Shown: in pieces, positions 14,613 to 64,000 of the stretch
How the letters are laid out: every line of letters begins with the position of its first letter
How positions within the stretch are numbered: position 1 is the first letter of the stretch
Virus record (IMG/VR): IMGVR_UViG_3300049617_000342
Location: 18,536-82,535 of that record
Origin: a virus
Lineage: Duplodnaviria; Heunggongvirae; Uroviricota; Caudoviricetes
Length of the DNA stretch: 64,000 nt
Strand: one strand, 5' to 3'
Translations under genes and position numbers: made by a program
Notes under the pieces: generated by a model
Database searches by the model: none
Seen by the model: only the letters and a program-made list of their open reading frames with translations
What the model was told of the DNA's origin: nothing

Positions 14613-14618
14613 GTTTTC

Positions 14619-18530: not shown

Positions 18531-18556
18531 TCGCCTATATCGTACCAAGGTTGGAG

Positions 18557-18632
18557 TGGTAGCCCCACCCCGAGTCGAACGGGGATCATCCATTTAGGAA
18601 ACGGAAGCTCTGTCCACTTAAGCTATGGGGCC
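18557..18632 (-). tRNA. tRNA-Arg (anticodon CCU)
   Basis: Cloverleaf folded by hand on the reverse complement. Acceptor stem GGCCCCA/TGGGGCT (G1·U72), D-stem GCTT/GAGC, anticodon stem TCCGT/ATGGA with loop TTCCTAA, T-arm CCCCG-TTCGACT-CGGGG, and an encoded CCA. Coordinates ±1. Confidence 0.75.
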
Positions 18633-27332: not shown

Positions 27333-29048
27333 TCATTGCTGGCTTATCTCCTGAGAAGCCTTGATTATGCCCTCTTGCATTGCGCGGATCTTCTCCGCCT
27401 CCTCGGTGTTCGAGACGGCGATAACCCCACCGAGTGTCATAAGCATCTGCGCGACGGACAGCGAGTTGTCCAGCGCGGTCATGGTCACCTTGGCGGGGTC
27501 CATGATGCCCGCCTCCCACCAGTCCACGTACTTCATCCCCAGAGCGTCGAACACCAGGAACTTGCCGTCCTTGGGGCCGACCAGGTCGGCCGTGTTCTGG
27601 AGGTCCTTCTCGTCTATGAGGCCGGCGTTCTTTAGTATCTGGATGAACGGCATCGCCATGGCCTTCCTGAGGATGCCCTCGGCGCCCTCGGGCGACATCC
27701 CCTTCGCTATCTGGAGCAGCGTGGTTCCTCCACCCGGGACGACGCCCTTCTCGACCGCGCTGCGGACCGAGCTGACCGCGTCGACCACCCGAGCGTGGCG
27801 CTCCTTGGCCTCGAAGCTGGACACGCCGCCGGCATAGACGACCGCGACGCCGCCCGTTAGGCAGCTGATGCGGTACCGTATGCGGTCCTGGTCGAAGTCG
27901 TTGGCGCCCTGCATCTTCTCCTTGAGGTCTGCTATCCTCTTCTCGATCAGCTCGATCTTGGCGTCCGCCTCGACGACGGTGTCGCTCGGGGTGACCTTGA
28001 TCGACCGGGCGAAGCCCATGTTGAGGATGGTGGCCTCCTTGAGCCCGTGGGCCACGGGGTCGAACACCTGCCCGTCGACGTAGGCCGCGAGGTCGTGCAG
28101 GAAGCCCTGCTTGCCGTGCGCCTGGCCGTTCCTGGGGGTGATCAGCGGCATGCACGTGAACCGGCCGAGCCTGAAGTTCTGCGCGAGCAGCTTCAGCACC
28201 GCGTCGGAGTACCTGTGGGCGAAGATGATAAGGGGCGTCATCAGGGCCCGGCCGTTCTCGCCGATCTCCTTGCTGACGTCCGTCATGACTGGGATTATGT
28301 CCTCGGCCACGTTGATCTCGCCGTCGTAGAGCAGCACGTATGCGCCGCCCTCGATCTTCGTGTCGCCGTAGGCGTTGTTGTTGACGAACAGGGTGCTGGC
28401 GGAGCCGCCCAGGTCGCGGAGCCCCGTGGTTATAGGGAAGCCAGGCTTGATCTCGACGCTGGTGTCCGCCCCGGCGCCCTCCTCGGCTATGATCATCCCG
28501 TCCTCGCCTACCTTGTCGGCGGCCTCGGCCACCTTCTCGGCTATCTCGAGGTCGTGGTTGGCGCTGACCTTGGCTACGTGCTTGAGGGCGGCGCGGCTGT
28601 CCTCGACGGACATGCCCTTGATCTGCTTGGCCATGGCCTCGACCGCCGGCTTGACCTTGTCGTTCAGTATGGTCTTGAGCCTGCGGCTGAGCTCCTGGGG
28701 GCTGATGTGCGGGTTCTTCTGGAGGAACTCCTGGCCCTCGCGGACCATGGCGGCAGCCAGCACTATGGCCGTCGTGGTGCCGTCTCCGGCGACCCTAGCG
28801 GTGCGCTCGCAGACCTCCTTGGAGGCGTCCACGACCACCCGCTCGACGGCGCCCTGCTCCGCGTAGTACCTGGATACGGTGACGCCGTCCTTGGTGGACA
28901 GCGGCGCCTTGCCAAGCTCCTGCTCGAGGAGCATGGTGCGCCCGCCGGGGCCGAGGGTCATGCCCACGGCCTTCGACAGGTTGTCTATCGCGGTGAAAAC
29001 CTTGAGCCTGAACTCTGCGCTGTCAAGAAACGTTATCGGTGCCGGCAT
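27333..29048 (-). CDS. groL: chaperonin GroEL (Cpn60)
   Basis: 571 aa, colinear with GroEL. Matches include AGDGTTTA, the equatorial ATP-binding regions, and GGVAVVYAGGVSSFEAKERHARVVDAVSSVRSAVEKGVVPGGG. Confidence 0.9.
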   Translation of the reverse strand: MPAPITFLDSAEFRLKVFTAIDNLSKAVGMTLGPGGRTMLLEQELGKAPLSTKDGVTVSRYYAEQGAVERVVVDASKEVCERTARVAGDGTTTAIVLAAAMVREGQEFLQKNPHISPQELSRRLKTILNDKVKPAVEAMAKQIKGMSVEDSRAALKHVAKVSANHDLEIAEKVAEAADKVGEDGMIIAEEGAGADTSVEIKPGFPITTGLRDLGGSASTLFVNNNAYGDTKIEGGAYVLLYDGEINVAEDIIPVMTDVSKEIGENGRALMTPLIIFAHRYSDAVLKLLAQNFRLGRFTCMPLITPRNGQAHGKQGFLHDLAAYVDGQVFDPVAHGLKEATILNMGFARSIKVTPSDTVVEADAKIELIEKRIADLKEKMQGANDFDQDRIRYRISCLTGGVAVVYAGGVSSFEAKERHARVVDAVSSVRSAVEKGVVPGGGTTLLQIAKGMSPEGAEGILRKAMAMPFIQILKNAGLIDEKDLQNTADLVGPKDGKFLVFDALGMKYVDWWEAGIMDPAKVTMTALDNSLSVAQMLMTLGGVIAVSNTEEAEKIRAMQEGIIKASQEISQQ

Positions 29049-31294: not shown

Positions 31295-32704
31295 TTAGCT
31301 GTTGTTGGCCTTTGGGTCGATCAGCGTCTTGCTGGTTTTGTCCTCGAGTTTGCCGAGGTATCCAGGTGCGTCGATACCGCTGCTCTTGAGCATCTCGTGG
31401 AAGCCTGGTAGCATCCCCGCGAAACTCTTCACGAAGCCAGCGACTCCGCTGTCCCCGTTTCCGCTTCCACCGTCGAAGACCACGACCTTGTCGAACTTGA
31501 GGTTCTTGATTGCCTCGGTCTGCTTGGTGACGAGCGTCTCCATCTTCTCGATCATTAGGAGTGTTGGTGCGAGCTCAGGCGATGCTGCCGCGATGAGGTT
31601 CTTGTAGCCGGCTGCCTTGGCGTCGAGGACGAGCTGGATTCCTTTGGCTTCCGCCTCGTACTTGGCGAGGATACCGTCTGCCTGCCCCTTCGCCTCGATG
31701 CGGGTCTTCTCTGCGTTGGCGTTTGCCTGTGTCTCGATGATGCTCTTGGTTACTTGTTGCTGCGCGAGTTGCTCCTTCTCGAGCTTGGCGAGCTCTTTCT
31801 CTTTTTCCGCCTTGAAGACCGCTGTTGCGGCTTCGGCTTGGGCTACCTGACCGGCTCTGGTCGCGGTTGCCTTGGCCACTTCCAAGGTTGCGTTGTAGCT
31901 GGCGATCTTGGCGTTCGCGTCGTTCTCACCCTTGATTGCGTTGGAGTTGAACTCGGCGACCTTGATTCTCTGGTTGGATGTCGCTTCTTGCTTCCCCACC
32001 TCTGCTGCGGCGTTCTGCTGGGCGACGCTGACCTGTTGGTCCTTGGTGGCTGTTGCTACGCCGATTTCCCCGTCCTTGTTGCGGCCGGCTACGGCGATCT
32101 TGGCTTCGTTCAAGGCACCGGCTATGGCGTTCTGGCCGATAGCCTTGAGGTACCCGGACTCGTCGGTGATGTCGTGGATGTTGACGTTGATGATCTCTAG
32201 GCCGATCTTGTGGAGCTCAAGGTTGACGTTGTCGTCGACCGTCTTGAGGAACTTGTCTCGGTTGCTGTTGATCTCCTCGATCTGCAAGGTCGCTATTGCG
32301 AGACGGAGCTGGCCGAGAACCATGTCCCGTGCCTGGGTCATTATCTCTTCCTTCTTCAAGCCGAGCAAGCGCTCTGCCGCGTTCTGCATGATCTCGGGTT
32401 TGGTCGAGATCGCGACCGTGAAGGTGGAGGGGATGCTTACCCGGATGTTGTTCTTCGCCAAGGCGCCCTGAAGGTCGACCTCGAGCGCGAACGGGTAGAG
32501 CGACATGTACGCGTAGTCCTGGATGAGCGGGATTACGAACGCGCCGCCGCCGTGGATGCAGCGTGCGGTCTGGTTGCCGCCGACGCGGCCGTAGATGACT
32601 AGGATCTCGTTCGAGGCGCAGCGCTTGTACTGGTTGACCGCGAAGAGGAGGCCGAACAGGAATATTGCCGCCGGCACGACGTAAAGCGCTATGGTTCCAA
32701 ACAT
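31295..32704 (-). CDS. flotillin-like SPFH/Band-7 protein (YqiK-like)
   Basis: N-terminal TM, then an SPFH domain (…VIPLIQDYAYMSL…), then a long Ala/Glu-rich coiled-coil 'flotillin' region (AQAEAATAVFKAEKEKELAKLEKEQLAQQQ…). Confidence 0.75.
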   Translation of the reverse strand: MFGTIALYVVPAAIFLFGLLFAVNQYKRCASNEILVIYGRVGGNQTARCIHGGGAFVIPLIQDYAYMSLYPFALEVDLQGALAKNNIRVSIPSTFTVAISTKPEIMQNAAERLLGLKKEEIMTQARDMVLGQLRLAIATLQIEEINSNRDKFLKTVDDNVNLELHKIGLEIINVNIHDITDESGYLKAIGQNAIAGALNEAKIAVAGRNKDGEIGVATATKDQQVSVAQQNAAAEVGKQEATSNQRIKVAEFNSNAIKGENDANAKIASYNATLEVAKATATRAGQVAQAEAATAVFKAEKEKELAKLEKEQLAQQQVTKSIIETQANANAEKTRIEAKGQADGILAKYEAEAKGIQLVLDAKAAGYKNLIAAASPELAPTLLMIEKMETLVTKQTEAIKNLKFDKVVVFDGGSGNGDSGVAGFVKSFAGMLPGFHEMLKSSGIDAPGYLGKLEDKTSKTLIDPKANNS

Positions 32705-33295
32705 TTAACTCTCCTTTGATTGTAGGCCGACAATCGGCTCGACGAGTAGTTTACCATCGTATATCCCCGCAACGCGAATGCGCTGAAAGGCCTTGACTTC
32801 CCCGGACTTGACGATCGCCTCGAACTCCTTGAGGCCGCCGAGGGACTGGATCTGGACCGTCGCCTTGCCGTCCTCCTTGGGGAGGTAGACCATGCCGTTC
32901 TTGCCGACCATCGAGGCCATGTCGAGCTCGTAGTCCGGGGTCTTGTCCAGCCTCTTTATCAGGTACATCACCGTGCTGGTGAGGACCATGGTGGCGAAGC
33001 CCGCCGCGAAGGCGAGGGCCGCGGTGGCGGCGGACGAGAAGCCGTGCTCGAATCTAAAGGACAGGCCCGACCAGCCGAAGCCCATCAGGAAGCCGAAGAT
33101 CGAGATGATCGATAGTAGCTTGAACTGGTTGTCCGAGTGGTTCGCCGTGGCGTGGGGGTGCCCGACGTCGTGGACGTGGACCTCGCCGAGGCCGTGGGCG
33201 GCGCCCATCACGTCTCCGACGAAGATCGAGATCAGCCGGAAGCCGAACAGGATCGAGCCGAAGCTCGCGATAGCCATGTAGAACTTGTATTCCAT
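32705..33295 (-). CDS. NfeD-like membrane protein (YqiJ-like partner of SPFH proteins)
   Basis: Multi-TM N-terminus plus a C-terminal soluble beta (OB-like) domain. Immediately upstream of, and stop/start-adjacent to, the flotillin gene, matching the conserved NfeD–SPFH operon arrangement. Confidence 0.6.
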   Translation of the reverse strand: MEYKFYMAIASFGSILFGFRLISIFVGDVMGAAHGLGEVHVHDVGHPHATANHSDNQFKLLSIISIFGFLMGFGWSGLSFRFEHGFSSAATAALAFAAGFATMVLTSTVMYLIKRLDKTPDYELDMASMVGKNGMVYLPKEDGKATVQIQSLGGLKEFEAIVKSGEVKAFQRIRVAGIYDGKLLVEPIVGLQSKES

Positions 33296-33657
33296 TATTT
33301 TGCCCTCTCGACGAGCGCCGCTATGGCGCTGGTTATTTCATAGTCTCCGGCCACCGGCGCGTTGGCCGATATCTGGCCCGGCTTCGGCGCGGCCCTGCTC
33401 CCCGGGTTCCAGGCGCCGTCCACCACGCCGCTGCCCGAGAGCATCTTGATCAGCCCGGTCGCCTCGCCCAGGAACTTCTGGCTATCCACGACGAACGACA
33501 GCCCCGCCAGGGCGGCTGCGACGACGTCGGTGCTCTGGTACGGTGTCGGGTCCCGGAGGACGTCCAGGTCACTCGCGGCCGTGACGAGCTCTTCCCCGGA
33601 CTGGGGGCTCAGCTTCTTCCTGTTCCGGGGCGACGACAGTTGGTCGTAGGTTATCAT
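33295..33657 (-). CDS. hypothetical protein (120 aa)
   Basis: ORF in the track. Confidence 0.4.
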   Translation of the reverse strand: MITYDQLSSPRNRKKLSPQSGEELVTAASDLDVLRDPTPYQSTDVVAAALAGLSFVVDSQKFLGEATGLIKMLSGSGVVDGAWNPGSRAAPKPGQISANAPVAGDYEITSAIAALVERAK

Positions 33658-33668
33658 GCGCTGGAATT

Positions 33669-33893
33669 CTACGCGGGTCCATGGCCTCCACGGTTTCGCT
33701 CAGCTTTTTTGGTCCTGACCCTGATCTCCTCGGCCTCCTGGACCTGGTCGTCGAGCGTGAGGCCTGCGGACTTCAGGACCTTGACGAAGCCGCCCTGGAC
33801 GCCGCCGAGTATCGAGATGACGAAGAAGGCGGCCACGGGGTTCGCGGTCGCCCAGTTGACGAGCCTCTCCGCGAATTTCACAAGGTCATCCAC
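33669..33893 (-). CDS. small membrane protein (74 aa)
   Basis: Central hydrophobic helix PVAAFFVISILGGVQGGFV. Confidence 0.35.
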   Translation of the reverse strand: MDDLVKFAERLVNWATANPVAAFFVISILGGVQGGFVKVLKSAGLTLDDQVQEAEEIRVRTKKAERNRGGHGPA

Positions 33894-33938
33894 CGCTTCC
33901 GACCCTCAGCCTTATGCAGGCGCCCGTCAGCGGGTGGC

Positions 33939-34394
33939 TCATTCGCTGCACATGCAGTGGGTGCCGTGCTCGTCCATGTGTATCTCCTTGAGCCTCTTGT
34001 GGCCGGCGTCCGACCAGCAGATCGCGCGGCAGTACATCTCGCCCTGGAAGCCGGTGTCGTTCCTGATGTTGTCGCGCTCCTCGTCCATGACCGCGTCGCA
34101 GAGCAGCTCCACCGAGCCGTCGAAGTTCCCGGTCCAGTAGTCCGAGGCCTTCGTGATGATCTCCTTGTCCTCGTCGGCGAAGGGGCCGTTCCTCATGTCG
34201 CTGGCGAAGGCGTACATGCCCTCGACGCACCCGGAGTGCCAGGCGTAGGGGTCGAGCGGCGGAGGAGAGGCGGGCTTCTCCACGGGCACGCCGTCCGCTA
34301 TCCGAGGCTCCTGGATCGCCCTGTGCGAGAGCACGCCGGCGAAGACCGCGGAGGCCAGGGCGGCACCGACCACGAAGCCAAACAGTGTCCTCAT
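33939..34394 (-). CDS. secreted Cys-rich protein (151 aa)
   Basis: Internal ATG (MRTLFGFVVGAALASAVFAGVL is a signal peptide) with GGAGGA RBS. Eight Cys in the mature part. The N-terminal part of the track ORF is shadow. Confidence 0.45.
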   Translation of the reverse strand: MRTLFGFVVGAALASAVFAGVLSHRAIQEPRIADGVPVEKPASPPPLDPYAWHSGCVEGMYAFASDMRNGPFADEDKEIITKASDYWTGNFDGSVELLCDAVMDEERDNIRNDTGFQGEMYCRAICWSDAGHKRLKEIHMDEHGTHCMCSE

Positions 34395-36136: not shown

Positions 36137-36146
36137 AATGTGCCCG

Positions 36147-36161
36147 AGGCTCTCAGAGCCT
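36147..36161. promoter_or_regulatory. perfect 15-bp palindrome AGGCTCTcAGAGCCT
   Basis: It sits immediately after the stop of the 35558 gene and before the aminotransferase gene. It could be an operator or a short terminator stem. Confidence 0.25.
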
Positions 36162-36218
36162 TGCGGAACCCAGGGGGCCACCGCCAGAAATGGCTCCCGA
36201 ACTTTTCACGGAGAACCG

Positions 36219-37412
36219 ATGTCAGACTCGGCCATGCTAGACGCCAAGAAGCCCCTGCCCGAGGACTGGATCGACCTCGGCATAGGCGACGCGCGCATAG
36301 TCAGGGAGGCCCTGCTGGAGTCCTTCCCGGACCTCCAGGCCCGCGAGGTCTTCAGGGACCGCTGGCTCTCGCAGGAGGTCCAGTCGCTGGGCTACCTCCA
36401 GCCGGAGGGAATCCCGGGCCTCAGAATTTCCCTCAGGAAGCTGCACGAGCTACAGTTCGGGGAGGTGTGCGTCACCGCCGGCGCCAAGGCGGCGCTGCTG
36501 GCCGTGCTCGTGGCCGCGAAGGGGATGGGCCGGAAGGCCGTCACCGCCTACGTGCCTTACTGGTCCAGCTTCCCCAGGCTCGCCGAGATCGCCGGCCTCC
36601 ACTTCTTCCCGTTCGCGCCGCTCGCCAAGGAGGCCCAGCCATTCAAGCCCGGCGAGACCGTGATGATCGTCACCGACCCCAACAACCCCGACGGCCGGAA
36701 CACTTACGACTCGGTCTACGAGACGATCAGGGAGATGGGCTACATGCTGGTCCACGACGCCGCCTACTGGTCGCCGATCTACGGCATCGACAAGTCGAGG
36801 AAGCTGCCGTCCGCGGACGTGCACGTGTTCAGCTGCTCGAAGGCCATGGGCCTCAGCGGGGCCAGGGTCGGCTACACGATAGCGTGGCCCGAGATGCACA
36901 GGGAGATAGTCGAGGCGGTGGAGGCCACGACCAGCGGAGCGTCCGAGTACGCGCAGCAGGTGGTCTGGGACGCCGTGAACCTACAGACCAGCCGGCCCGA
37001 GCAGTGGGCCTCGTTCGTCAACGACGCCAAGAGCAAGATCGACATGAACAGGAAGGCGTTCCTGGAGAACCTGCCGAACGGCGTCGCCAGCACCGGCAGC
37101 ATGTACGCGGCGGACGACCAGCAGGGCATCTTCCTCTGGCTGGAGAAGGGACCGGAGTACGGGGTGGACAGGGTCCGCGTCGTGGACGGCAAGGACTTCG
37201 GCAGACCCGGATGGTTCAGAATCAACCTGGGCAACTACGGCCTAAAGGAAACAATCGACATTGCCAAGAAAAGAATGGGGAAGTCCCGAAGCGGAGCTGA
37301 ACCGAGTTGGAAAGATCCTAAGTCGAAGGACTGGTCGTCAATCGGCAAGGCGCTATCGGGCCTCCGCAAGTTTCGTGGGGGGTCCAAATCCCGACAAAAA
37401 TCAAAGCGCTAG
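36219..37412 (+). CDS. PLP-dependent aminotransferase (class I/II fold)
   Basis: 397 aa from the internal ATG (MSDSAMLD). Lys motif SCSKAMGLSGARVGY matches SxSKxxGxxGxRxG of fold-type I aminotransferases. A PNNPDG-type turn lies upstream. Confidence 0.65.
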   Translation: MSDSAMLDAKKPLPEDWIDLGIGDARIVREALLESFPDLQAREVFRDRWLSQEVQSLGYLQPEGIPGLRISLRKLHELQFGEVCVTAGAKAALLAVLVAAKGMGRKAVTAYVPYWSSFPRLAEIAGLHFFPFAPLAKEAQPFKPGETVMIVTDPNNPDGRNTYDSVYETIREMGYMLVHDAAYWSPIYGIDKSRKLPSADVHVFSCSKAMGLSGARVGYTIAWPEMHREIVEAVEATTSGASEYAQQVVWDAVNLQTSRPEQWASFVNDAKSKIDMNRKAFLENLPNGVASTGSMYAADDQQGIFLWLEKGPEYGVDRVRVVDGKDFGRPGWFRINLGNYGLKETIDIAKKRMGKSRSGAEPSWKDPKSKDWSSIGKALSGLRKFRGGSKSRQKSKR

Positions 37413-52848: not shown

Positions 52849-53148
52849 ATGAGCGAGCAGCCACAGCAGCAGTACCCGTTCCTGTTCACGGCGGCCGAGG
52901 TGAACCTCATCCTCAAGGGCCTGGAGGAGCTTCCGCACAAGCTGAGCGCGGGCCTCATAGGGCAAATCCTGAGCGGCGCGAAGGCCATAGAGGCCAAGGC
53001 GGCGGAGGCGGCCGAGAACCTGAAGAAGTCGAAGGCGGAGTACGCTGACAGGCGGGACGCGAAGGCGGAGGGGCCGAAGGTGGAGGCCAAGCCGGAGCAG
53101 CCCAAGAAGTCGTCCGGGCCGAAGCTGGCCAAGTCCCTCCAGAGCTAG
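52849..53148 (+). CDS. hypothetical protein (99 aa), Ala/Lys/Glu-rich C-terminus
   Basis: Last gene of the rightward block. Confidence 0.4.
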   Translation: MSEQPQQQYPFLFTAAEVNLILKGLEELPHKLSAGLIGQILSGAKAIEAKAAEAAENLKKSKAEYADRRDAKAEGPKVEAKPEQPKKSSGPKLAKSLQS

Positions 53149-53390
53149 GGCACGAAGGGCGGCTTGGCGGGCCACACGATGGTCGTGGGGTCCGTCTTGT
53201 TCGGGTCCATGCACGTCCTGAGCGCCTGGATGTACTGCAGAAGCTGCACGTAGAGGGGCTGCGCTAGCGTCGTCTGTATGTGCAGGGCCTGCTCGTCGAG
53301 GTGCCGGGCCCTCATCCACTCGCACTGTATTATCAGCCCGTTCCTCTTGGCCCTGGCCATGGCCATCCCGTTCTGGTTCCTAGCTGGCAT
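53145..53390 (-). CDS. hypothetical protein (81 aa)
   Basis: Its stop overlaps the stop of the convergent plus-strand gene (cTAGg read on both strands). Confidence 0.4.
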   Translation of the reverse strand: MPARNQNGMAMARAKRNGLIIQCEWMRARHLDEQALHIQTTLAQPLYVQLLQYIQALRTCMDPNKTDPTTIVWPAKPPFVP

Positions 53391-53399
53391 TCAACCCTC

Positions 53400-56300
53400 C
53401 TATGATATCGGTATCGGGTTCGTGAAGATCGAGTAAGTAGAGGCGGTGAACTCGTCCGACCCGTTCAAGGGGGTCAGGCCGCCGGTGGTCCAGGACTGGT
53501 ATCCGAAGTTGATGTACCCCACGCTGGGTTTCAGGAGCACGGTGAAGTTGACCGCCACGTTGTCCCCCTTGGCCATGTAGCCGCAAAGCTCCACCGGGCT
53601 GAAGACCTTGGTCGCCTGCGAGGTGTAGCCGGGCGGCAGCGACACCTGGGCCTCGCTGGCGCTCGTGGTGGCCACCGCCATGGTTCCCTTTATCAGTATC
53701 GAGTCCGTCCCGTCGAACTTGTACCAGAAGCTGGAGGACGACACGGTGATCCCCGAGAAGGTCGGGGTGTACGGCGTCCACACGGTCGGCCCAATGGCCT
53801 TGGCCCCGCTTAGAAGCTCGATCGAGAAGGACGAGTTGATCGGGGCCGTGCCGCCGTTGACGTTGTGGGTGGTGTCGATCCAGATGGCCACCGTGTCGCC
53901 CTGGTTCAGCTGGACCTCGGCCGTGCCGGACGCGGCCGCGGAGCCTATGATCTGGCAGAGCGTTAGGTACGCGGCGCCGTTGACCGCGAGGAACACGTCG
54001 CTGTTCGAGCTGCTCACGCTCAGCGCGCAGCTCACCCTGTAGGTGCCCTTGAACGGGGCGGTGTATAGGCCCGTGCCGGTGGCGTAGGCGTTGTCGGTGT
54101 CGAACGAGACCGTGTCGAACGTTATCGGGCTGTTCGCGCCTATGTTGGTGGTCGTGTTCATGTAGGCGGACGCCGACACCAGACGGCCTATGCCGGTGGA
54201 CACGCTCGGGGCCTGCGCCGCCAGGGTTATCGAGACGGTGGGTATGTAGCCGACGTCGGTGCCCGTCAGGGCGCTGTAGTTGAGGGTGGTGGACGTGTCG
54301 TAGACGATCGTGGCCACGTCGCCGGCGTTTAGGAACACCTGCAGGGTGCCGCTGGTTATGGCGGACTGGTTGTGCGTGAGGCGGCCCCCGACGTTGACGC
54401 CGTTGACGTTCACGTACGTGTCGGCCACGGTGGTGGGGAAGAAGCAGGTCGCCTGGAAGTCGTAGTAGCCGCTGACCGGGGCCGTGAACTGGCCGTTGGT
54501 GGCGTTGTACGCGCTGTTGGTGTCGTAGTAGGTGAACGGGAACACGATGGGCACCCCGGCCGTCACCGAGAGGGTGCCGCTGCTGGCCGGGTTGACCCCG
54601 AACTTGGCGGTGACGCCGGGCATCTGTGCGCCCGTCGGTGCTCCGAACGAGCCCAGCGGCTTGGCGAACAGCTTGCAGCCGACGACGGCCTGGTCGCCTC
54701 GGTTGGTGCCGCCGCCGACGTAGACGGTGTAGGTGTGCGTGCCGGCGGGCGGGCTGTCTATGAAGCTGTAGCCCGAGGCCGGCGTCATCAGGATGTTTAT
54801 GGAGATGTTGTCCTGCATCTGCTGGTAGCCGCCGCCCACGTAGGCGCCGTCCCTGTAGAAGCTGACGAAGGCGTAGCTCACCGCCGGCGTGGAGTCGGTG
54901 GCTATGTAGCCGGCCCCGTTGCCGCTGCCGTCGCTGCACAGGCCCACCAGTATGTCCCCGCCGTTGGTCTCCAGGGTGACCGATATGGGTGTGAGTCCGG
55001 TGTGGTCCATGACCTGCGTCGGGCCGGCGCCGGAGAACGAGAAGGTCCCGGTGGACAGGCTCTTGACGAGCGTGGAGACCGCGTCCTGCTGCGCCCCGTA
55101 GAGGCCCTTGATGGGCACCTTGAAGCTGGCGTACCAGTTGGCCCCGCTCTCGGCGAAGTTCAGGGCGTTCATCTTGCTGAACGCGCCGCTCGCTGTGGCG
55201 GCCGTGAAGTAGACGTTGTTGACGTCCGAGCCGTCGAAGAACGGGTAGGTCTGCCACTCGGCGGTGTTTATGCCGGCGGCGGTGCCGCTGGTCGTCAGAG
55301 AGTTGGCGAAGCCGTCGAGGGTCTCTCCCAGGCTGCTTAGCTTTGTGGCGTCCGCCTGGAGCCCGGCCGGGAGGCCGAGGGCCATCGGGGCCGCGGTCGA
55401 GCTGCCGACCAGCATGGACACCCTGAACTCCATGGTGTCGCCCACGATCCTGCTGAACGTCTGGAGGTTGCTGTACGCCCCGAAGCTGGCCGACGGCACG
55501 ACCTGCCTGGTGCTGACCCACGGGGTGACCGGCGCGGCCATGTTGCCGTTGAGCCCGACGCCCTCGGCGAACATGTAGAAGTTGGCGATGCCTCCCCTGA
55601 TGTAGAGGGTCCCGCCCGTGTTGGCCCCCTGGAGGTCGAACACGTAGGTCTTGCCGGCGACTAGGCTGTAGACGGACTGGCACCAGGCCGTGTCTATGAT
55701 GCCGCCCGTCGTCGCGTAGACCTCGCCCTGGCTCTCCTGGAGGAGGGCCGCTCCACCGCTGGTGTTCCACACCCTCACCGCGGCCTCCTGCGAGCTGCCG
55801 GTCTGGTAGAGGGAGACGTTGCTGTAGACCTTGTAGGTCCCGCTGATCACCGGCGTGAAGGTGAACGCCGGGCTGGTGCTGAAGGTCTGGAAGCCGCCGC
55901 TGATGCCCGCGCTCTGCGTCGTGACGGGACTGGAGGCGTAGAAGGCGAAGGCGCTGCCCTGCATGGCGCCGTTGGGGCCGTAGGTGCCGCTGGGCAGGTA
56001 GACGCTGCTGACCCACTGGGTCGTTATGTTGGTCGAGAACGCTATGTTCGCGACCCACGTCAGCACGTCGTTGGCGTTGAGCTTAAGGGCCATCACGAGG
56101 CCCTGGGCCCCCAGGGTGCCGGTGTTGTCTATTATCTCGCTGGTGGCGGAGCCGTTGACGTAGAGCTGCACCTGCTTGGTGCCGCCCGTGTAGTTGCCGT
56201 CCCAGCCCACGAGGTAGTAGCCGGAGTAGGGAACGACGTAGTGGCCGCTGGCGTTGTCGTAGGCGCTGTTGCTGTCGTACTCGGTGGTCCCCAGGGCTAT

Positions 56301-57533
56301 GGGGTTCCCCGCGGACCAGCTGCCGGACCCGCTGGCCTTGAAGTTGACCGGGAAGTTCTGGTTGGCCTGTATCAGGCCGACGCCCTCGGCGAACATGTAG
56401 AACTGCGCGCCGTCGCCCCTCAGGTACGCGTTGCCGGTGCCGCTCGCGACTATCCCCTGTATGTCGAAGACGTAGGGCTGCCCGCCGACGAGCTGGTAGG
56501 TGCTCTGGATGGTGACGCTGCTTATGAACGCGCCGCTGGAGTTGACGTACGCCTGCCCCTGGCTCTCCGCCACGAGCGTCGCCCCGCCGCTGGTGTTCCA
56601 CACCCTCGCCTTGACCTGGTTGTTCGCGGTGTCGGCCTCCAGGGGCACGGTCGAGTAGACCTTGTAGATCCCGCTGACCGCCGGCGTGAACGTGAACGCG
56701 GGGCTGTTGCTGAACGTCGTGAACGGGCTGGTGTAGGGTATCGCGGAGCTTATGACCGTGACCGGATTCGAGTCGTAGATGGCGAACGAGCTGCTGCCCG
56801 TGTTAAGCGTGCCGTTGAGCCCGATGCCCTCGGCGAACATGACGAACGGGATGTTCGAGCCGTCGGCGGTTATGGTGCCGTTCCCGATGTTCTTGCCCTG
56901 CAAGTCGAAGACGTAGCTCTGGCCCGCGACCAGCGTGTAGACGCTCTGGCACGACGCCGAGCCCGCGCGCCCGCTGGGCACGAGGTAAGGGTTGAAGCCG
57001 CCCTGGCTCTCGGCGAGGAGGGTCGCGGAGCCGCCGGTGTTGAATATCCTGACCACGCCCCAGGGGTCGGCGCCGGAGTTGCCGTCGAGCGTGGCCGTGC
57101 AGTAGACCTTGTAGGTGCCGCTTATGGTGGGGGTGAACGTGAGCGCGGGGCTGTTGTCGAAGGTGGTGAACGAGCCGCCGACCACGCTGCTGGCCGTGGT
57201 GACCTGCGAGGACTGGTACGTGGCGAAGGCCGCGCTGCCGCTGGCGAGCAGGGGCGTCTCGACGCCGGCCGCGGTCTGCCTGTAGGGAAGGTCGTCGTTC
57301 TTGAAGTAGATCTGGTCGTGCCCCGTGGAGGGCGGGCTGGGCGTGGCGATCTGCGCGAGGTCTATGGGGTTGGGCGAGCTGCCGCCCATGCCGACCCAGG
57401 AGCCGTTCTGGTAGGCCTGGAACAGACCCAGCGTGGTGTCGTAGTAGAAGTCTCCGTTCCTCGGGCTGGAGGGGGGAGAGGGGAGCTGCCCTAGGTTGAC
57501 GCCCGCGGAGAAATCCTGTACGTTCCTAGCCAT
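53400..57533 (-). CDS. giant tail-fibre-like protein with tandem C1q/TNF-like domains
   Basis: 1377 aa, S/T/G/N/V-rich. Three tandem ~150-aa repeats (…GTYKVY…VRIFNTGG…LLAESQG…YVFDLQG…). At least three C1q-signature segments (e.g. YYDTNSAYNATNGQFTAPVSGYYDFQATCFF). The N-terminal module is shared with the next two genes. Confidence 0.6.
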   Translation of the reverse strand: MARNVQDFSAGVNLGQLPSPPSSPRNGDFYYDTTLGLFQAYQNGSWVGMGGSSPNPIDLAQIATPSPPSTGHDQIYFKNDDLPYRQTAAGVETPLLASGSAAFATYQSSQVTTASSVVGGSFTTFDNSPALTFTPTISGTYKVYCTATLDGNSGADPWGVVRIFNTGGSATLLAESQGGFNPYLVPSGRAGSASCQSVYTLVAGQSYVFDLQGKNIGNGTITADGSNIPFVMFAEGIGLNGTLNTGSSSFAIYDSNPVTVISSAIPYTSPFTTFSNSPAFTFTPAVSGIYKVYSTVPLEADTANNQVKARVWNTSGGATLVAESQGQAYVNSSGAFISSVTIQSTYQLVGGQPYVFDIQGIVASGTGNAYLRGDGAQFYMFAEGVGLIQANQNFPVNFKASGSGSWSAGNPIALGTTEYDSNSAYDNASGHYVVPYSGYYLVGWDGNYTGGTKQVQLYVNGSATSEIIDNTGTLGAQGLVMALKLNANDVLTWVANIAFSTNITTQWVSSVYLPSGTYGPNGAMQGSAFAFYASSPVTTQSAGISGGFQTFSTSPAFTFTPVISGTYKVYSNVSLYQTGSSQEAAVRVWNTSGGAALLQESQGEVYATTGGIIDTAWCQSVYSLVAGKTYVFDLQGANTGGTLYIRGGIANFYMFAEGVGLNGNMAAPVTPWVSTRQVVPSASFGAYSNLQTFSRIVGDTMEFRVSMLVGSSTAAPMALGLPAGLQADATKLSSLGETLDGFANSLTTSGTAAGINTAEWQTYPFFDGSDVNNVYFTAATASGAFSKMNALNFAESGANWYASFKVPIKGLYGAQQDAVSTLVKSLSTGTFSFSGAGPTQVMDHTGLTPISVTLETNGGDILVGLCSDGSGNGAGYIATDSTPAVSYAFVSFYRDGAYVGGGYQQMQDNISINILMTPASGYSFIDSPPAGTHTYTVYVGGGTNRGDQAVVGCKLFAKPLGSFGAPTGAQMPGVTAKFGVNPASSGTLSVTAGVPIVFPFTYYDTNSAYNATNGQFTAPVSGYYDFQATCFFPTTVADTYVNVNGVNVGGRLTHNQSAITSGTLQVFLNAGDVATIVYDTSTTLNYSALTGTDVGYIPTVSITLAAQAPSVSTGIGRLVSASAYMNTTTNIGANSPITFDTVSFDTDNAYATGTGLYTAPFKGTYRVSCALSVSSSNSDVFLAVNGAAYLTLCQIIGSAAASGTAEVQLNQGDTVAIWIDTTHNVNGGTAPINSSFSIELLSGAKAIGPTVWTPYTPTFSGITVSSSSFWYKFDGTDSILIKGTMAVATTSASEAQVSLPPGYTSQATKVFSPVELCGYMAKGDNVAVNFTVLLKPSVGYINFGYQSWTTGGLTPLNGSDEFTASTYSIFTNPIPIS

Positions 57534-57539
57534 GGCTTC

Positions 57540-59609
57540 CTAGGCCAGCGGCCTGGCGTAGAGGACCGTGTACTCTATGGTGGAGCTGGCCGCGTTCCCG
57601 CCGTCCTGGTTCTGGTTGTAGACCTGTACCGAGTAGGTGTGCGTCCCGACGGGGGGCGTGTCTATGAACCTGACCGACGCCGGGGTCCACGCGGCCGTCT
57701 CGTAGCCGGTGTTGTTGCCCGTCATCATGGCCTGGACCGATATGCAGACGCCGTCCCTGTAGAGCTGCACGTAGACCTGGGGCCAGCAGTTCACGGGCGC
57801 CCCTGTCCTGGCGGTCCTTATCCTTCCAGGGTTGGTGGTGCCGTCGTCCATGAAGCCTATCTCCACGTCGCCGCCGTTGCACACGACGGTGGAGGTGAGC
57901 GGCACCGCCGAGAGGTCCGTTACGGGGACGAGGCTCGTGCTGAAGCCGAAGCCGGAGCCCGTGCTGTTCGACTTCTTGATCCTGGAGACCAGGGACGCGG
58001 GCACGGCGGAGGGGGATATGCCCGCTATGATGGTGGCCACGAGCACGGAGTAGTAGACGTTGACGCCCGACGGTGCAGTCGGCGCGCTGCTGGACACGTA
58101 CCACGCGTTGGCCGTGTAGGTGTGCGTCCCGGCCGGCGGCGTGTCGGTGAACGAGAAGCTGCCTGGCGGGAAGCCGGTGATGCCGACCGCTATGTTGTTC
58201 TGCTGGCCGGCGAGCATGGTGCATATGGGTGTCCCGTCCCTGTAGATCTGGATGGCCGCGTAGGCCACGAGGCCGGTGTTCCTGTAGACCTGGATCATGG
58301 ACTCGTTGGTTCCGCCGCTGCCCGGGTCGGGCTCGAAGCCTATCTTGACGGCCTGCCCCTGCGTGGTGATCACGCACTGTATGGGGTTGACGCCGCCGCT
58401 GTCGGTGATGGGCACGCCGGGCGAGGCCGTGTTGTTGGTGCTGAAGGCCCCGGTGGGCAGGCTCTTGATCGGTATGTTGAGGCCCACGTCCATGGCCGCG
58501 GGCGCCTGGAGCACGACCGACACCTGGTTGCCGCTGGCGCTGCCGTCGGTGGTGAAGGTGTTGCCCACCGTGACGGTCAGGTAGTCCCCGACCTTCATGT
58601 TGACGTGCGTCGCTATCCTGGTCGATATGGCGACGATGCCGGGCTGGCCGCCGTTGGCCCAGATGTCCTCGGCTATGGCGCTGCCGTTCAGGTTGAGGAA
58701 CAGCTCGTTCTGGCCGTCGCTGCGGCTGGAGCCGGTGTACTGCGAGACGTTGACCGCGTAGACGCCCGCCACGGGCGCGACGAACTGCCACGCGCTGCCG
58801 GGGTTGTTGACCGCGTTGTAGTTGTCGATGACCTTGTTCTCGAAGAAGAGCTGGCCGGTCGGGCCCTGGACGGTGGTGCTGTTGTAGATGGCGGCCACTA
58901 TCGGGCTGGCCTGGGGTATCGCGGGCACGGGGCTTATGGACACGTTGGCGAAGTCGAACGTCCAGGCGAGCGCGTTCGTGGTGGCGACGTGCCAGATCAC
59001 CCTGTAGTGCGTGCTGTTGTAGTTGGTCTGGAAGTAGCCGGTGAACGTGGCCGGCGTGGCGACGCCCCCGATGAACACGTTGGGCGTGACGGGGATGAGG
59101 ACCGCGTTCGTTATGTCGTACACCCACATCTCGATGTCACTGTCGCTGCCGAAGCTGCCGTCGCTGAGCTGGAAGTTGGCGCTGGCTTGGTACTGGAAGC
59201 TGACCTTGATGACGCCCGGGGAGAAGGCGAGGTCGCTCTGGAAGTCGTACGAGAAGCCCTGGCCCTGCGCGTTGACCGCGCTCTTGGCGAGCACGCCCAT
59301 GGTGTGGCCGACCAGCGGGTTGGTCTGGGTGCTCGTGAGGGCCAGGCCGGTGGCCGAGCCGCCCGTCCCCGTCGTCGGGGTGTGGACGGCGCCGTTGTTG
59401 TAGAGGTTGTATCCGTTGGTCGAGCCCACGCTGGGGTTGGTGTCGTAGTTGATGGTCCCGGACCCGCCAAGGGGGCCCCAGGAGCCGTTCTGGTAGCCGA
59501 GGAAGCCCTGGATCGAGTCGAAGTACACGTCCCCGTCCACGGGGTTGGACGGCATGGTGTACCCGCGGAACGTTATGCCCTTCTTAACCAGGAAGAAATC
59601 GTCTGCCAA
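57540..59609 (-). CDS. tail-fibre-like protein (689 aa)
   Basis: The N-terminal module matches its neighbours (…GDVYFDSIQGFLGYQNGSWGPLGG). The rest is beta-rich, G/S/T/N-rich. Confidence 0.5.
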   Translation of the reverse strand: MADDFFLVKKGITFRGYTMPSNPVDGDVYFDSIQGFLGYQNGSWGPLGGSGTINYDTNPSVGSTNGYNLYNNGAVHTPTTGTGGSATGLALTSTQTNPLVGHTMGVLAKSAVNAQGQGFSYDFQSDLAFSPGVIKVSFQYQASANFQLSDGSFGSDSDIEMWVYDITNAVLIPVTPNVFIGGVATPATFTGYFQTNYNSTHYRVIWHVATTNALAWTFDFANVSISPVPAIPQASPIVAAIYNSTTVQGPTGQLFFENKVIDNYNAVNNPGSAWQFVAPVAGVYAVNVSQYTGSSRSDGQNELFLNLNGSAIAEDIWANGGQPGIVAISTRIATHVNMKVGDYLTVTVGNTFTTDGSASGNQVSVVLQAPAAMDVGLNIPIKSLPTGAFSTNNTASPGVPITDSGGVNPIQCVITTQGQAVKIGFEPDPGSGGTNESMIQVYRNTGLVAYAAIQIYRDGTPICTMLAGQQNNIAVGITGFPPGSFSFTDTPPAGTHTYTANAWYVSSSAPTAPSGVNVYYSVLVATIIAGISPSAVPASLVSRIKKSNSTGSGFGFSTSLVPVTDLSAVPLTSTVVCNGGDVEIGFMDDGTTNPGRIRTARTGAPVNCWPQVYVQLYRDGVCISVQAMMTGNNTGYETAAWTPASVRFIDTPPVGTHTYSVQVYNQNQDGGNAASSTIEYTVLYARPLA

Positions 59610-59647: not shown

Positions 59648-61576
59648 TTATCGCAGGAACCGCTTGATGAAGATCCTCAGGGTCCTGTCGGTCGTGTTGG
59701 TGCTCGTGAACTGGAGGTTCGCGCTGCCCGCGCTGTAGGCGAGGGAGAACTGGACGCCGATGTCGCCAGAGTCGTTGTAGGTGTCGGTTATGGACGGTAT
59801 CGACCCGTCGCTGTTGGCCACGCAGGAGAGCCTCCCCTGCCTGACGATCGTCGGGCTGCCGCCGTCGGTCATGTAGTAGTCGGCGATGAAGCCGCCGTAG
59901 CTCGCGACCGCGAACGAGGTGGACGCGTCGACGTTGGCCACGCCGCTGGTGTTGTTCGCCAGGGTGATGTCGGCGTACTGCTCCTCGAGGTAGCTGCCCG
60001 GGGTGGGCCCGAAGAGGAGCTTGTTCGCCACGAGCTGCGGGCTGGTCGTGCTGCTGTCCGCGAGCGCGGCCGCGTTGTTGCTGAGTATGACCCTGTTCGC
60101 GTCCGGGGCCAGGAGCTTGCTGATCTGGATGGCCGCGGTGGCGTTGACCTTGGAGTCGGTGATGGCGCCGTTGGGGATGTAGAGCTGGTCGCTGCCGTTG
60201 ATGCCCACGGTCGAGCCGTCGACCTTGACGGAGAGCTTGGTGCCGCTGCCGCCGGCGAGGGCGCCGGTGGACGAGAGGGCCGAGGACGCGATCTGCGTCT
60301 CCGTGATCCCCGCGTTGAGGACGTAGATCTCGTTGCCGCCGTTGAGGCCGATCGTGGAGTTGTCGTAGAGGACGTTGAACTGGCCGCTCGACAGGTTGAG
60401 GCCGGCGCCGGCGGTGTACGCCCCGGCGGAGCTGAACTGTACGAAGGTGATGGCGGTGGTGTCCATCGTGCCGCCGGGCATGGACGTGCAGACCCAGCCG
60501 ATGTCGGCGTTGACGGAGCCGGTCTGGACGAAGACCGCCGCGGCGGGCACCTCGACCCAGAGGACCATGTCGGGGGCGCGCGTGAGGACGTAGGCGTTGG
60601 AGCCGCCGCCGACCGTGCTGACGTACCAGATGCCGTTGTAGGGGGCGTTGCCGCCGGCCTCGTTCTTGACGAGGATGCGGTCGTTGAGGACGGTGGTGTG
60701 GCCGTCGATGACCAGGGCGCCCACGGCGTTGGCCGTCAGGGTGTCGCCGGTTCCCTCCGGCCCGCCGCCGGCGGCGAAGGTGTAGGCGGGGAGGGTGGTG
60801 GTGGTCGCGACCACTACCGCGTCCTTCCAGTGCACGCCGTTTATGGCGTTGTCGACGTAGCCCTTGGTGGCGGCCTGGCTGGCCGAGCTGAGGCTGGTCG
60901 GGGTGGCCAGGTTGGTGATCATCCCGCCGTTCATGTTCAGCGTTCCGCTGAGGCTCGCGGCCGCTGCGGTCAGGGTGCCCGTCAGGGTGGGCGAGGCGGA
61001 GAACACCAGGTTGCCGGTGCCGGTGGTTCCCGAGGCGCCGGAGAGGTAGCCGAGCTGTGTCGGGGTGACGGCGCTCGATACGAGGACCTTGCCGGCGCCG
61101 AGGTACGGCACGGTGCTGGCGGTGAGCTGGTTGAACTCGACGCCGCTGGTGGACCAGCTGAGCTGTATCGCGGCCGCGCCGTCCTTGAGGGTCCTGTTCT
61201 GCCAGTCGAGGGAGACGAAGCCGCCGGAGTCGTCGAGGACCCTGCTGTAGGCCCCGACCGAGACCGAGCCGGCGCTGTCCAGGAGGCTCTGGATGTTGCC
61301 GGAGAGCCAGCTGAACGTCTGGGTGCCGACCTTGAAGGTGGCGTCCGTCCCGGGCGTCATGTCCTGGTTGACCGCCACCGGGCTGCTGAGGTTGCTTAGG
61401 AAGGTGTTGGCCGAGCTTCCGCCCGTGCCGATGCTGGTCCACCCGCCGTTCTGGTAGATCCTGAACGTGTTCGCGCTGGTGCTGTAGTAGATCTCGCCGT
61501 TGTAGGCCGTGCCCGGGTCGGCCGACAGACTTCCGACGACTATTGGGCTCCTGCCTAGCTGTAGCTCGTTTGCCAT
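59648..61576 (-). CDS. tail-fibre-like protein (642 aa)
   Basis: N-terminal module (…GEIYYSTSANTFRIYQNGGWTSIGTGG). Internal fibre motif …SSASQAATKGYVDNAI…, the classic P…AATKxYVD tail-fibre signature. Confidence 0.55.
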   Translation of the reverse strand: MANELQLGRSPIVVGSLSADPGTAYNGEIYYSTSANTFRIYQNGGWTSIGTGGSSANTFLSNLSSPVAVNQDMTPGTDATFKVGTQTFSWLSGNIQSLLDSAGSVSVGAYSRVLDDSGGFVSLDWQNRTLKDGAAAIQLSWSTSGVEFNQLTASTVPYLGAGKVLVSSAVTPTQLGYLSGASGTTGTGNLVFSASPTLTGTLTAAAASLSGTLNMNGGMITNLATPTSLSSASQAATKGYVDNAINGVHWKDAVVVATTTTLPAYTFAAGGGPEGTGDTLTANAVGALVIDGHTTVLNDRILVKNEAGGNAPYNGIWYVSTVGGGSNAYVLTRAPDMVLWVEVPAAAVFVQTGSVNADIGWVCTSMPGGTMDTTAITFVQFSSAGAYTAGAGLNLSSGQFNVLYDNSTIGLNGGNEIYVLNAGITETQIASSALSSTGALAGGSGTKLSVKVDGSTVGINGSDQLYIPNGAITDSKVNATAAIQISKLLAPDANRVILSNNAAALADSSTTSPQLVANKLLFGPTPGSYLEEQYADITLANNTSGVANVDASTSFAVASYGGFIADYYMTDGGSPTIVRQGRLSCVANSDGSIPSITDTYNDSGDIGVQFSLAYSAGSANLQFTSTNTTDRTLRIFIKRFLR

Positions 61577-61938: not shown

Positions 61939-64000
61939 CTAGCTCGCCTCCTCTATCTCGATGGACAGCGGCGAGACCTGGAGGTTGCTTGAGAACTCCA
62001 GGGTGTTGTTGGAGATCTCGTTGTAGTACTGGTCCAGGGTGACGCCCGCGATGTACCTCGGGACCCTCTGGCCGTTGACGTACGGCACCAGGGCGCCCCT
62101 GACGGTGCCGGCGAACGCGCCCACGGTGTAGGTGAAGTTCAGCTGGACCCTGGTCTTCCCGAGGACGTTGAACGTGGGCATGCAGTTGTTCGGGGTGCCC
62201 GAGTTGTCGGACATGACGAACGCGCTGGCGCCGGCTCCGGGGAGCACGGGGGCGTAGCTGGGCGTGCCCGTGGGGCCGGCGGTGCCGTCGGACCACCGCC
62301 TGGTCATGTACTTGAGGGTGGCGTTGGTCCCGGAGTTGTCGAGGGTGTAGATCAGGTTGACGTTGCCGCCCGAGAGGCTGGCGGAGAACGTGAGGCCCGT
62401 GGCCCCGGTGTAGCTGCCGCCGCTGGAGACCTGCGCCGTGGCCCCGTCGTTGACGAGCCAGGCCGTGCCCATCTCCTTGACCCCGTTCCTGAGGATGGAG
62501 AACTCCACGACGATGTTCTCGCTGCCCAGGGCGGTGACCGAGAACACGTTGGCGGTGGTGTTGTTGAGGAGCGTGCTGGTGACCGGGGCCGCCTGCTCCA
62601 TGAAGTCGACGCCGTTGAAGTACCTGAACGTCCTGTTGACTAGCCACGTGGTCCCGTTGAACTCGGTCAGCTGGTCGTGGAACTGGGTGCCCTGCTGGAC
62701 CACGAGGAGGTCCCCGCCGGCCGGGTCGTAGGGGCTGGCGAAGTCGGGCTGGGCGGTCCAGGCTATGGAGCCGGGCGTGGTGGTGCCGGCCAGGCCGCTG
62801 TCGTCCAGGACGGCGTGGTACACCTGGCCGCTGGTGAGGGTGTTGGTGCCGCCGAACGTGAACGTGTAGACGGTAGGCGTCGTGGTGAGGGTGGCGCTGT
62901 TGAGGGGCGCGCTGGTCTCGATCAGGGTGCCGGGCTGGCCCGCGCTGTCCGTGTAGACCTTGACGTACAGGTTCCCGCTCGGGGGCGGCGACAGGGTGGC
63001 GATGGAGAGCTGGAACTGGACGTCGTCCAGGAAGGCCGTGAAGCCGGCGGTGAACGTCTGGCCGAGGCTGACCGTGTTGAGCGTCTCGCTCTCGGTGGTG
63101 TTGGTCGAGAGGTTCTGCGCGAACACGACGGGGCTGGAGCCGCTGTTGAGCGCCGCGAACACCAGGCCCTGGTTGGTCTGGGGCGTCCACGTGGAGCCGC
63201 TGTCCGTCGAGAGGCTGAACTCTGGGGGCGACGTCGCGGGGACCTCGCCCATGCCGACCGCGATGTAGTGCAGGCCGCCGAGGCCGACTATATTCGTGAA
63301 GTCTATGACGAACCAGTACTGGGTGCCGCCCGTGAGCGCGGCGGTCAGGCTGGCCAGCTGCCACTGGGTGACGTTGCTGCTGTTGATCGTGCTGCCGGCC
63401 ACGGACACCGTCGCGCCCGGCACCAGGGTGCCCGGCTGGCCGGCGTTGTCGGTGAAGATGCTCAGCGTGTACGAGCCCGTGTAGCTGTTTAAGCTGCCCA
63501 GCTCGTAGAGCAGGGCCGTCAGGGTCTCGCTGGTCGCGGGCGTGAACGGCTGGGCCACCTGCGTCGTGGTGGCGGTGGCCTGGTAGTACGTGGTGTGGGT
63601 GTTGTTGAAGCACCCGGGGGCGCTGGACGATATGAGGCCCGAGCCCGTGGTGACCGCGAACAGGAGGTTGGCGTTGTTGCCGCTGTCCTGGATCGGCGTC
63701 CAGGTGGACCCGCTGTTCGAGCTGATGTTGGCCACGGCGTTGGTGATGAAGTTGTAGTCCTGGAACACCAGGACGAACCCGCTCCCGAACACCACGTTGC
63801 TGGCGTCCACGACCAGGTGGTAGGTCTGCCCGCTGGTCAGGGTGCCGCTGGAGAACGCGACGGTGACCGGGCTGGGGTTGTAGGGCGTGGTGGTGGCGAA
63901 GGGCAGCGAGGTCGCTAGGACCTGCACCACGTTCGTCACGTTCGTGCCGCTCGGTAGGCCGCCGCTGTCCGTCTGGATGCTGACGTTCAGGTAGCCGCCC
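61939..64000 (-). CDS. large repeat-containing structural protein, 5'-truncated by window edge
   Basis: The reading frame stays open from 63939 to the window end (…GGYLNVSIQTDSGGLPSGTNVTNVVQV…). The track 'start' is an internal GTG. There are two internal repeats around …D(N/S)AGQPGTL…. Confidence 0.5.
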   Translation of the reverse strand, partial: GGYLNVSIQTDSGGLPSGTNVTNVVQVLATSLPFATTTPYNPSPVTVAFSSGTLTSGQTYHLVVDASNVVFGSGFVLVFQDYNFITNAVANISSNSGSTWTPIQDSGNNANLLFAVTTGSGLISSSAPGCFNNTHTTYYQATATTTQVAQPFTPATSETLTALLYELGSLNSYTGSYTLSIFTDNAGQPGTLVPGATVSVAGSTINSSNVTQWQLASLTAALTGGTQYWFVIDFTNIVGLGGLHYIAVGMGEVPATSPPEFSLSTDSGSTWTPQTNQGLVFAALNSGSSPVVFAQNLSTNTTESETLNTVSLGQTFTAGFTAFLDDVQFQLSIATLSPPPSGNLYVKVYTDSAGQPGTLIETSAPLNSATLTTTPTVYTFTFGGTNTLTSGQVYHAVLDDSGLAGTTTPGSIAWTAQPDFASPYDPAGGDLLVVQQGTQFHDQLTEFNGTTWLVNRTFRYFNGVDFMEQAAPVTSTLLNNTTANVFSVTALGSENIVVEFSILRNGVKEMGTAWLVNDGATAQVSSGGSYTGATGLTFSASLSGGNVNLIYTLDNSGTNATLKYMTRRWSDGTAGPTGTPSYAPVLPGAGASAFVMSDNSGTPNNCMPTFNVLGKTRVQLNFTYTVGAFAGTVRGALVPYVNGQRVPRYIAGVTLDQYYNEISNNTLEFSSNLQVSPLSIEIEEAS

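Follow-up and report, generated by a model that had tools for sequence, protein, structure and literature searches.

We analyzed 64,000 nucleotides (nt) of a tailed virus (class Caudoviricetes), positions 18,536 to 82,535 of the IMG/VR record IMGVR_UViG_3300049617_000342, referred to here as the window, and focused on p1, a putative tail-fiber gene whose product is a long chain of domains resembling C1q and tumor necrosis factor (TNF) heads. The gene lies on the minus strand at positions 53400 to 57533, with an ATG start and a stop codon at 53400 to 53402, and encodes a protein of 1,377 amino acids (aa). This is the open reading frame (ORF) given in the ORF listing and described as a fiber in a first-pass annotation made from the sequence alone, and its fiber-like neighbors and an adjoining chaperone gene agree with that description. 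The start is credible because the ATG is preceded, at a distance of 6 nt, by a Shine-Dalgarno-like sequence, AGGAAG, which shares bases with the stop codon of the gene before it. The remaining long ORFs over the region are off-frame ORFs of the kind usual in DNA with 64 to 67% G+C, and a promoter and terminator scan of the region returned nothing beyond shuffled expectation. An identical protein, annotated as "hypothetical protein," is present in public collections on a 93-kb contig; a scan of the whole protein against NCBIfam gave no match.

Self-comparison of the protein, combined with hidden Markov models (HMMs) of its segments, resolved p1 into an N-terminal motif followed by nine modules in line, in the order A-A-C1q-A-E-D-C1q-C1q-F. 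The modules measure ∼125 to 155 aa each, are joined by short linkers, and fall into four sequence families (A, C1q, D, and E/F).

Three of the modules are, by sequence, genuine members of the gC1q family: C1q-1 (aa 397 to 520; positions 55974 to 56345), C1q-2 (aa 963 to 1104; 54222 to 54647), and C1q-3 (aa 1105 to 1242; 53808 to 54221), all, like the other modules, on the minus strand. Against Pfam C1q (PF00386; gathering score, 23.7 bits), the whole protein scored 75 bits (E = 8e-21) over three stretches, which bears out the earlier proposal of at least three gC1q segments. Scanned singly, C1q-2 and C1q-3 reached 28.0 and 44.0 bits, and C1q-1, with 22.7 bits, fell just below the threshold. 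A profile built from C1q-1 orthologues only found the collagen X NC1 domain at an E value of 2.3e-7 and a single-chain C1q at 1.6e-9. When all three subtypes and their homologues were combined, the resulting profile found collagen X NC1 at 5e-11 and also matched collagen VIII, adiponectin, C1q A/B/C, cerebellin, Caprin-2, and C1QL. The modules carry a central stretch of the form ...D.N.aY....G.[FY]T.P..G.Y..., as seen in alignment with adiponectin and C1q. We infer their ten-stranded jelly-roll fold from this significant homology to solved gC1q domains. C1q-3 shares 63% identity with the tip module at the C terminus of the relative P0006 and 58% with that of P0012, and it matches the C termini of the minor tail protein families PHROG 746 and 737. 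We also considered whether C1q-1, C1q-2, and C1q-3 of a single chain could join as one head in the manner of C1q A/B/C, and we rejected this arrangement: C1q-1 is ∼440 residues away from C1q-2, and homologues have one, two, or three C1q modules.

The first-pass annotation had also noted three tandem repeats of ∼150 aa with a GTYKVY motif. There are indeed three copies of this repeat, our module A, with pairwise identities of 50 to 55% (BLAST E values of 1e-28 to 1e-33) and the signatures SG(T/I)YKVY and A(T/A)L(L/V)(A/Q)ESQG, but only the first two are in tandem. A1 (aa 96 to 243; 56805 to 57248) adjoins A2 (aa 244 to 396; 56346 to 56804), which is ∼50% identical to A1 and A3 and has positional orthologues in homologues, and C1q-1 sets both apart from A3 (aa 521 to 669; 55527 to 55973; 51 to 55% identity with A1 and A2). 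Structure prediction gave a TNF/C1q-like jelly roll for the A repeat, that is, the same fold class as that of the C1q modules. The C1q-like repertoire had thus been drawn too narrowly: the three gC1q modules stand, and the GTYKVY repeat is itself predicted to be a jelly roll of this kind. The closest structural neighbors of the A model are a TNF-like lectin, the head of a lactococcal phage receptor-binding protein (RBP), and Bdellovibrio fiber tips, with ExsFA, EDA, C1QL1, BclA, collagen VIII NC1, and many TNF ligands further among its neighbors. Across A modules, mean column identity is 52%, and three variable stretches lie between the conserved segments TFTPTISGxYKVY, NTSGGATLLxESQ, QSVYxLTAGTxYVFDIQG, and FYMFAEG, a pattern that would fit variable binding loops on a conserved core and interface. 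A modules that form the tip of a protein and those that lie inside one share 47 conserved columns, with none conserved but different (r = 0.88).

Modules E (aa 670 to 822; 55068 to 55526), D (aa 823 to 962; 54648 to 55067), and F (aa 1243 to 1377; 53403 to 53807) make up the rest of the chain. E, a predicted beta-sandwich, and F, the distal tip, are homologous by hhalign (probability, 97.4%; E = 1.1e-11). Wherever F occurs in a homologue, it forms the C-terminal tip. D occurs twice more at the C terminus of the neighboring fiber protein p2 (35 to 37% identity with p2 aa 381 to 529 and 541 to 689) and forms the C-terminal tip of P0009, P0010, and P0079. A two-domain model of E-D (predicted template modeling score [pTM], 0.54) gave fold matches only to the TNF/C1q-like class, its best neighbors including TNF-like heads and lectins; the search gives no ranges per domain, and the model suggests a TNF/C1q-like fold for at least one of the two domains and probably for both. 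In a Foldseek search of BFVD, the same model aligned over >300 columns to phage tail fibers and minor tail proteins, among them the tail fiber of Caulobacter phage Seuss and several mycobacteriophage minor tail proteins; alignments of this length imply that both domains have tandem counterparts in known fibers.

For A, D, E, and F, searches found no Pfam family or PHROG and, with profiles, no PDB sequence relative. A common origin of the A, C1q, D, and E/F families was rejected at the sequence level, as hhalign comparisons were nonsignificant except for E against F. The folds of the families nevertheless appear to agree. Given the homology of E and F and the folds modeled for A and E-D, the whole chain after residue 95 would consist of nine TNF/C1q-like modules.

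The N-terminal region (aa 1 to 95; 57249 to 57533) has a motif, NGDFYYD...YQNGSW..GGS, in common with the two fiber genes upstream. Residues 21 to 52 of p1 are 56% identical to residues 20 to 50 of p2, and the region has weak PHROG matches to virion structural protein. These ∼95 aa probably serve in attachment to the tail or to another fiber. In P0048, a relative of 1,469 aa, the HMM of the N-terminal motif matches six times along the length of the protein; the motif may therefore act both as an anchor and as a repeated unit.

A tightly packed series of fiber-like genes occupies the minus strand in the order p4, p3, p2, p1, with p1 as its final large gene. Starting 9 nt past the p1 stop codon is a gene for an 81-aa protein (53145 to 53390, minus strand) that matches the tail-fiber assembly chaperone family Phage_tail_APC (PF16778; 32.8 bits against a cutoff of 26.6) and the PHROG tail fiber assembly families 188, 4912, 105, and 8716. 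Upstream of p1, p2 (57540 to 59609, minus strand) encodes a 689-aa fiber protein with the layout N-B-C1q-D-D, in which the N-terminal motif and the D modules are shared with p1. Its C1q-like module (aa 253 to 368) is missed by Pfam but is matched at 1.7e-12 by a C1q-module HMM built without p2, and the phage therefore has at least four C1q-like modules in two fiber genes. Next, p3 (59648 to 61576, minus strand; 642 aa) has the related motif NGEIYY...YQNGGW and matches phrog_30390, a family of unknown function. The form common to p1, p2, and p3 in a three-way alignment is NG[DE]xY[YF]...YQNGxW..GGS, and these three consecutive fiber genes appear to use one attachment motif. Upstream of p3, p4 (61939 to 63939, minus strand; at least 666 aa) matches the NCBIfam choice-of-anchor R model NF041539 over two stretches (37.8 bits). 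The p4 protein has internal repeats of the type TFTF..LTSGQ.YH.V.D, and its gene may run past the end of the window. Because p1 shares its N-terminal motif within a run of fiber genes and adjoins an assembly chaperone gene, we take it, on sequence and context, to be a tail fiber with a dedicated chaperone.

Relatives of p1 were found only among metagenomic sequences in a word-indexed search, which returned 51 of them, and an exhaustive search of 1.84 billion proteins with an A-module profile returned 410 cluster representatives. Relatives of p1 sit on ∼171-kb contigs. On a related contig of 171 kb, the p1 homologue lies in a run of large fiber-like genes beside a Collar-domain protein and a lysozyme. 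The block N-A-A-C1q-A-E-D, or a variant in which C1q replaces E, is collinear in more than 10 homologues, and the C-terminal ends vary, consisting of F, C1q-C1q, Phage_depo_C, or an unassigned region; Tail Collar and Gly_rich_2 domains occur in relatives further removed. The proximal part is thus conserved and the distal part exchanged, as expected of a fiber or RBP. In the related phage of locus L002 (ENA contig_71383, 171 kb; positions 13964 to 15436), the p1 homologue P0004 ends in Phage_depo_C domains and is followed by a 490-aa gene and not by an 81-aa chaperone gene, so that a different tip goes along with a different partner downstream.

The modules are positionally orthologous but mosaic, with the nearest relative changing from module to module: A1 is 74% identical to its counterpart in P0004, C1q-1 is 66% identical to that of P0012 but only 37% identical to that of P0004, and E is 56% identical to that of P0002 but 30% to that of P0005, while C1q-3 is nearest to P0006 (63%). 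We counted modules and tips over 163 collected proteins. A formed the C-terminal tip of 72 proteins, C1q that of 18, D that of 11, and F that of 10. One recognized module was present in 84 of the 163 and two were present in 38; six modules are common, p2 has four, P0002 has seven, and p1, with nine, has the most. Toward its distal end, p1 has D, which is a tip elsewhere, followed by C1q-2-C1q-3, with which P0006 and P0012 end, and by F, which is always a tip. The simplest reading of these sequences is that p1 arose by the stacking of alternative tips through recombination at module borders.

Several known systems resemble parts of this architecture. The gC1q family (C1q, adiponectin, collagen VIII and X NC1, cerebellins, and C1q/TNF-related proteins [CTRPs]) is similar to three p1 modules at the sequence level, but p1 has no collagen stalk and carries its C1q modules in line, three per chain and set among modules of other jelly-roll families. 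C1q proteins encoded next to tail-fiber genes have been described as putative RBPs in phage metagenomes from marine and cryoconite sources (PMC3909814, PMC7468147), and C1q domains occur in the fibers of extracellular contractile injection systems (PMC12923769). Like p1, these are putative host-recognition proteins of phages or phage-like systems, encoded beside tail-fiber genes and highly variable between related genomes; they are described with a single C1q domain, preceded in the examples shown by a more conserved N-terminal part, whereas p1 has three and six further predicted jelly rolls. The first-pass annotation called several C1q-like heads in one polypeptide unusual. This holds in comparison with the described phage proteins, with their single C-terminal C1q domain (PMC3909814, PMC7468147), and phrase searches of the literature found no description of tandem C1q domains in phages. 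It does not hold within the family of p1 itself, in which 11 of the 163 proteins have two or three C1q modules, nor in comparison with fibers of tandem beta-sandwiches or with animal proteins such as CTRP4 (two C1q domains) and the mussel C1q-domain-containing protein HcC1qDC6 (three in tandem). Those animal proteins likewise have several C1q domains per polypeptide but are secreted eukaryotic proteins of immunity or metabolism, whereas p1 is a putative virion fiber.

At the level of predicted structure, the best neighbors of A and E-D are the TNF-like heads of a Photorhabdus lectin (9ib6), the Tuc2009 RBP (5e7f), and Bdellovibrio Bd2734 and Bd2439 (8okw and 8ol4), as well as the C-terminal domain of Chlamydia Pgp3 (4jdn) and BclA (1wck), all at only 10 to 21% sequence identity. 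These neighbors form trimers, and sugars are often bound between their protomers; Bd2439, a tip of the Bdellovibrio MAT fibers, binds N-acetylglucosamine in this way (PMC10769870). In phage RBPs, TNF-like domains are also recognized as one class of receptor-binding module at the C terminus (preprint 10.64898/2026.05.12.724579, PMC9608196, PMC13433997). In Bd2439, Bd2734, Pgp3, and BclA, the domain is C-terminal, whereas in p1 the fold would recur up to nine times per chain. The Seuss tail fiber and the mycobacteriophage minor tail proteins share with p1 the recurring fiber design of tandem beta-sandwich modules; they have no detectable sequence similarity to p1, and the number of modules and the composition of families are particular to the p1 group.

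We consider it probable, with moderate confidence, that p1 is a long receptor-binding tail fiber, a homotrimer of in-line trimeric knobs that originated by the stacking of tips. The N-terminal ∼95 aa would fix the protein to the tail or to another fiber, and three chains would assemble in register, aided by the chaperone encoded directly downstream. Each module would trimerize with the equivalent modules of the other two chains, so that nine knobs would follow one another along the fiber; by analogy with TNF-like lectins and fiber tips, the knobs would bind sugars in pockets between protomers. Primary contact with the host would fall to the F knob at the distal end, and the internal knobs, which are tips in related fibers, may add low-affinity or alternative contacts. 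The multivalent receptor binding suggested in the first-pass annotation is plausible. Assembly between chains rather than within one is suggested by the A modules, since tip and internal copies share one conservation pattern, and by the 84 proteins with one recognized module, in which no intrachain trimer is possible.

Several points weigh against this reading. TNF and C1q domains have their N and C termini together at the base, and coaxial stacking of knobs with linkers of ∼10 to 20 residues would therefore be geometrically awkward. The trimerization of p1 is itself proposed by analogy, from its fold family and its chaperone; the fold matches of the E-D model cannot be assigned to one domain or the other; and the internal modules may be purely structural. 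In addition, tblastn of p1 against 50,697 cultured-phage records found no relative at an E value of ≤1e-5 and, at an E value of ≤1, only insignificant matches to the N-terminal motif. The p1 family is narrow and is absent from the cultured phages in those records.

A serious rival, although one that we hold to be somewhat unlikely, keeps the same trimeric fiber but makes most of it a structural shaft: the F tip alone would bind, and the eight internal jelly rolls would be spacers that set the length and stiffness of the fiber and descend from former tips. Strong conservation of the A module, whatever its position or protein (52% mean column identity), fits a structural role, the collinear N-A-A-C1q-A-E-D block of more than 10 homologues looks like a conserved shaft, and F is always terminal. 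Yet A, C1q, and D each form the C-terminal tip in many relatives and are thus competent as heads, lectins and receptor-binding heads are the nearest matches in fold, and A places three variable loops between its conserved strands, as binding surfaces would. It is improbable, in our view, that the modules associate within one chain as pseudotrimers, (A-A-C1q)(A-E-D)(C1q-C1q-F), to give three asymmetric, heterotrimer-like heads per chain. Such an arrangement would account for nine modules as three times three and for the six modules of many homologues, and it would suit the short linkers; native C1q heads are heterotrimers as well. The position of the termini at the base of TNF/C1q domains also favors it and is the reason why single-chain constructs of C1q, adiponectin, and cerebellin fold; the single-chain constructs 5hzf, 4dou, and 5kca are among the matches of the C1q-module profile. 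The module counts, however, are not strict multiples of three (seven in P0002, four in p2, and two or one in others), and A modules are constrained alike whether they lie at a tip or inside a chain. Moreover, the two domains of the E-D model, at a pTM of 0.54, are not packed like neighboring TNF protomers, and only ∼100 to 124 of its residues align to single-chain trimers. If this arrangement were true, the phage would have evolved in one polypeptide the heterotrimeric C1q-head design of engineered single-chain TNF/C1q proteins, and each triplet would be a three-faced binding head, with faces that recombination could swap independently.

Finally, p1 might be an adhesin elsewhere on the virion surface, for example a fiber or whisker of the head or neck, or one that the phage carries and that is secreted. 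Within the window, no baseplate gene was identified beside it, and its N-terminal motif is without a characterized counterpart. We give this very little credence, as a tail-fiber assembly chaperone gene lies directly downstream, homologues carry Tail Collar and depolymerase C-terminal domains, the homologue on the 171-kb contig lies among fiber-like genes by a Collar-domain protein and a lysozyme, and C1q-3 matches the C termini of minor tail protein PHROGs.

C1q/TNF heads on phage fibers and modular host-recognition proteins were already known. What is new in p1 is the series of nine in-line modules of one predicted fold class, drawn from four interleaved families, three of them unannotated, together with the evidence for stacked tips; the biology of p1 is that expected for a phage host-recognition protein, and its architecture is extreme. 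Receptor-binding modules determine the host range of phages, and p1 shows how far the accretion of such modules can go. It also poses a structural question, namely, how domains with both termini normally on the same side are strung in line. Annotation of the A, D, and E/F families would label several hundred metagenomic fiber proteins. If the internal heads are active, proteins of this kind would be natural multispecific adhesins and scaffolds for engineering phage host range.

Beyond the fiber genes, the window encodes a portal, a large terminase, an SbcD-like nuclease, a DnaE-type polymerase, a GroEL, a ribonucleotide reductase, and a helicase, and it evidently belongs to a large, uncultured tailed phage. 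The closest cultured-phage match of the portal (1372 to 3534) is Myxococcus phage Mx1, with 29% identity, which hints at the wider affiliation of the phage. The DnaE-type polymerase (14619 to 18593, minus strand; 1,324 aa) is a replicative Pol III alpha with a PHP domain. Three auxiliary genes are uncommon in phages: those for the GroEL-type chaperonin (27333 to 29048, minus strand; phrog_5725, 321 bits), an SPFH/flotillin-like protein (Band_7 and Flot; 31295 to 32704, minus strand), and a class I/II aminotransferase (36138 to 37412, plus strand). The AT skew of the window flips sharply at ∼33000 to 34000 and at ∼53000 to 53400, with values of −0.15 to −0.3 before the first flip, +0.15 to +0.28 between the two, and about −0.17 after the second, and both flips coincide with switches of the coding strand. 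The fiber operon and the plus-strand block converge at 53145 to 53148, where the ends of their ORFs overlap by 4 nt.

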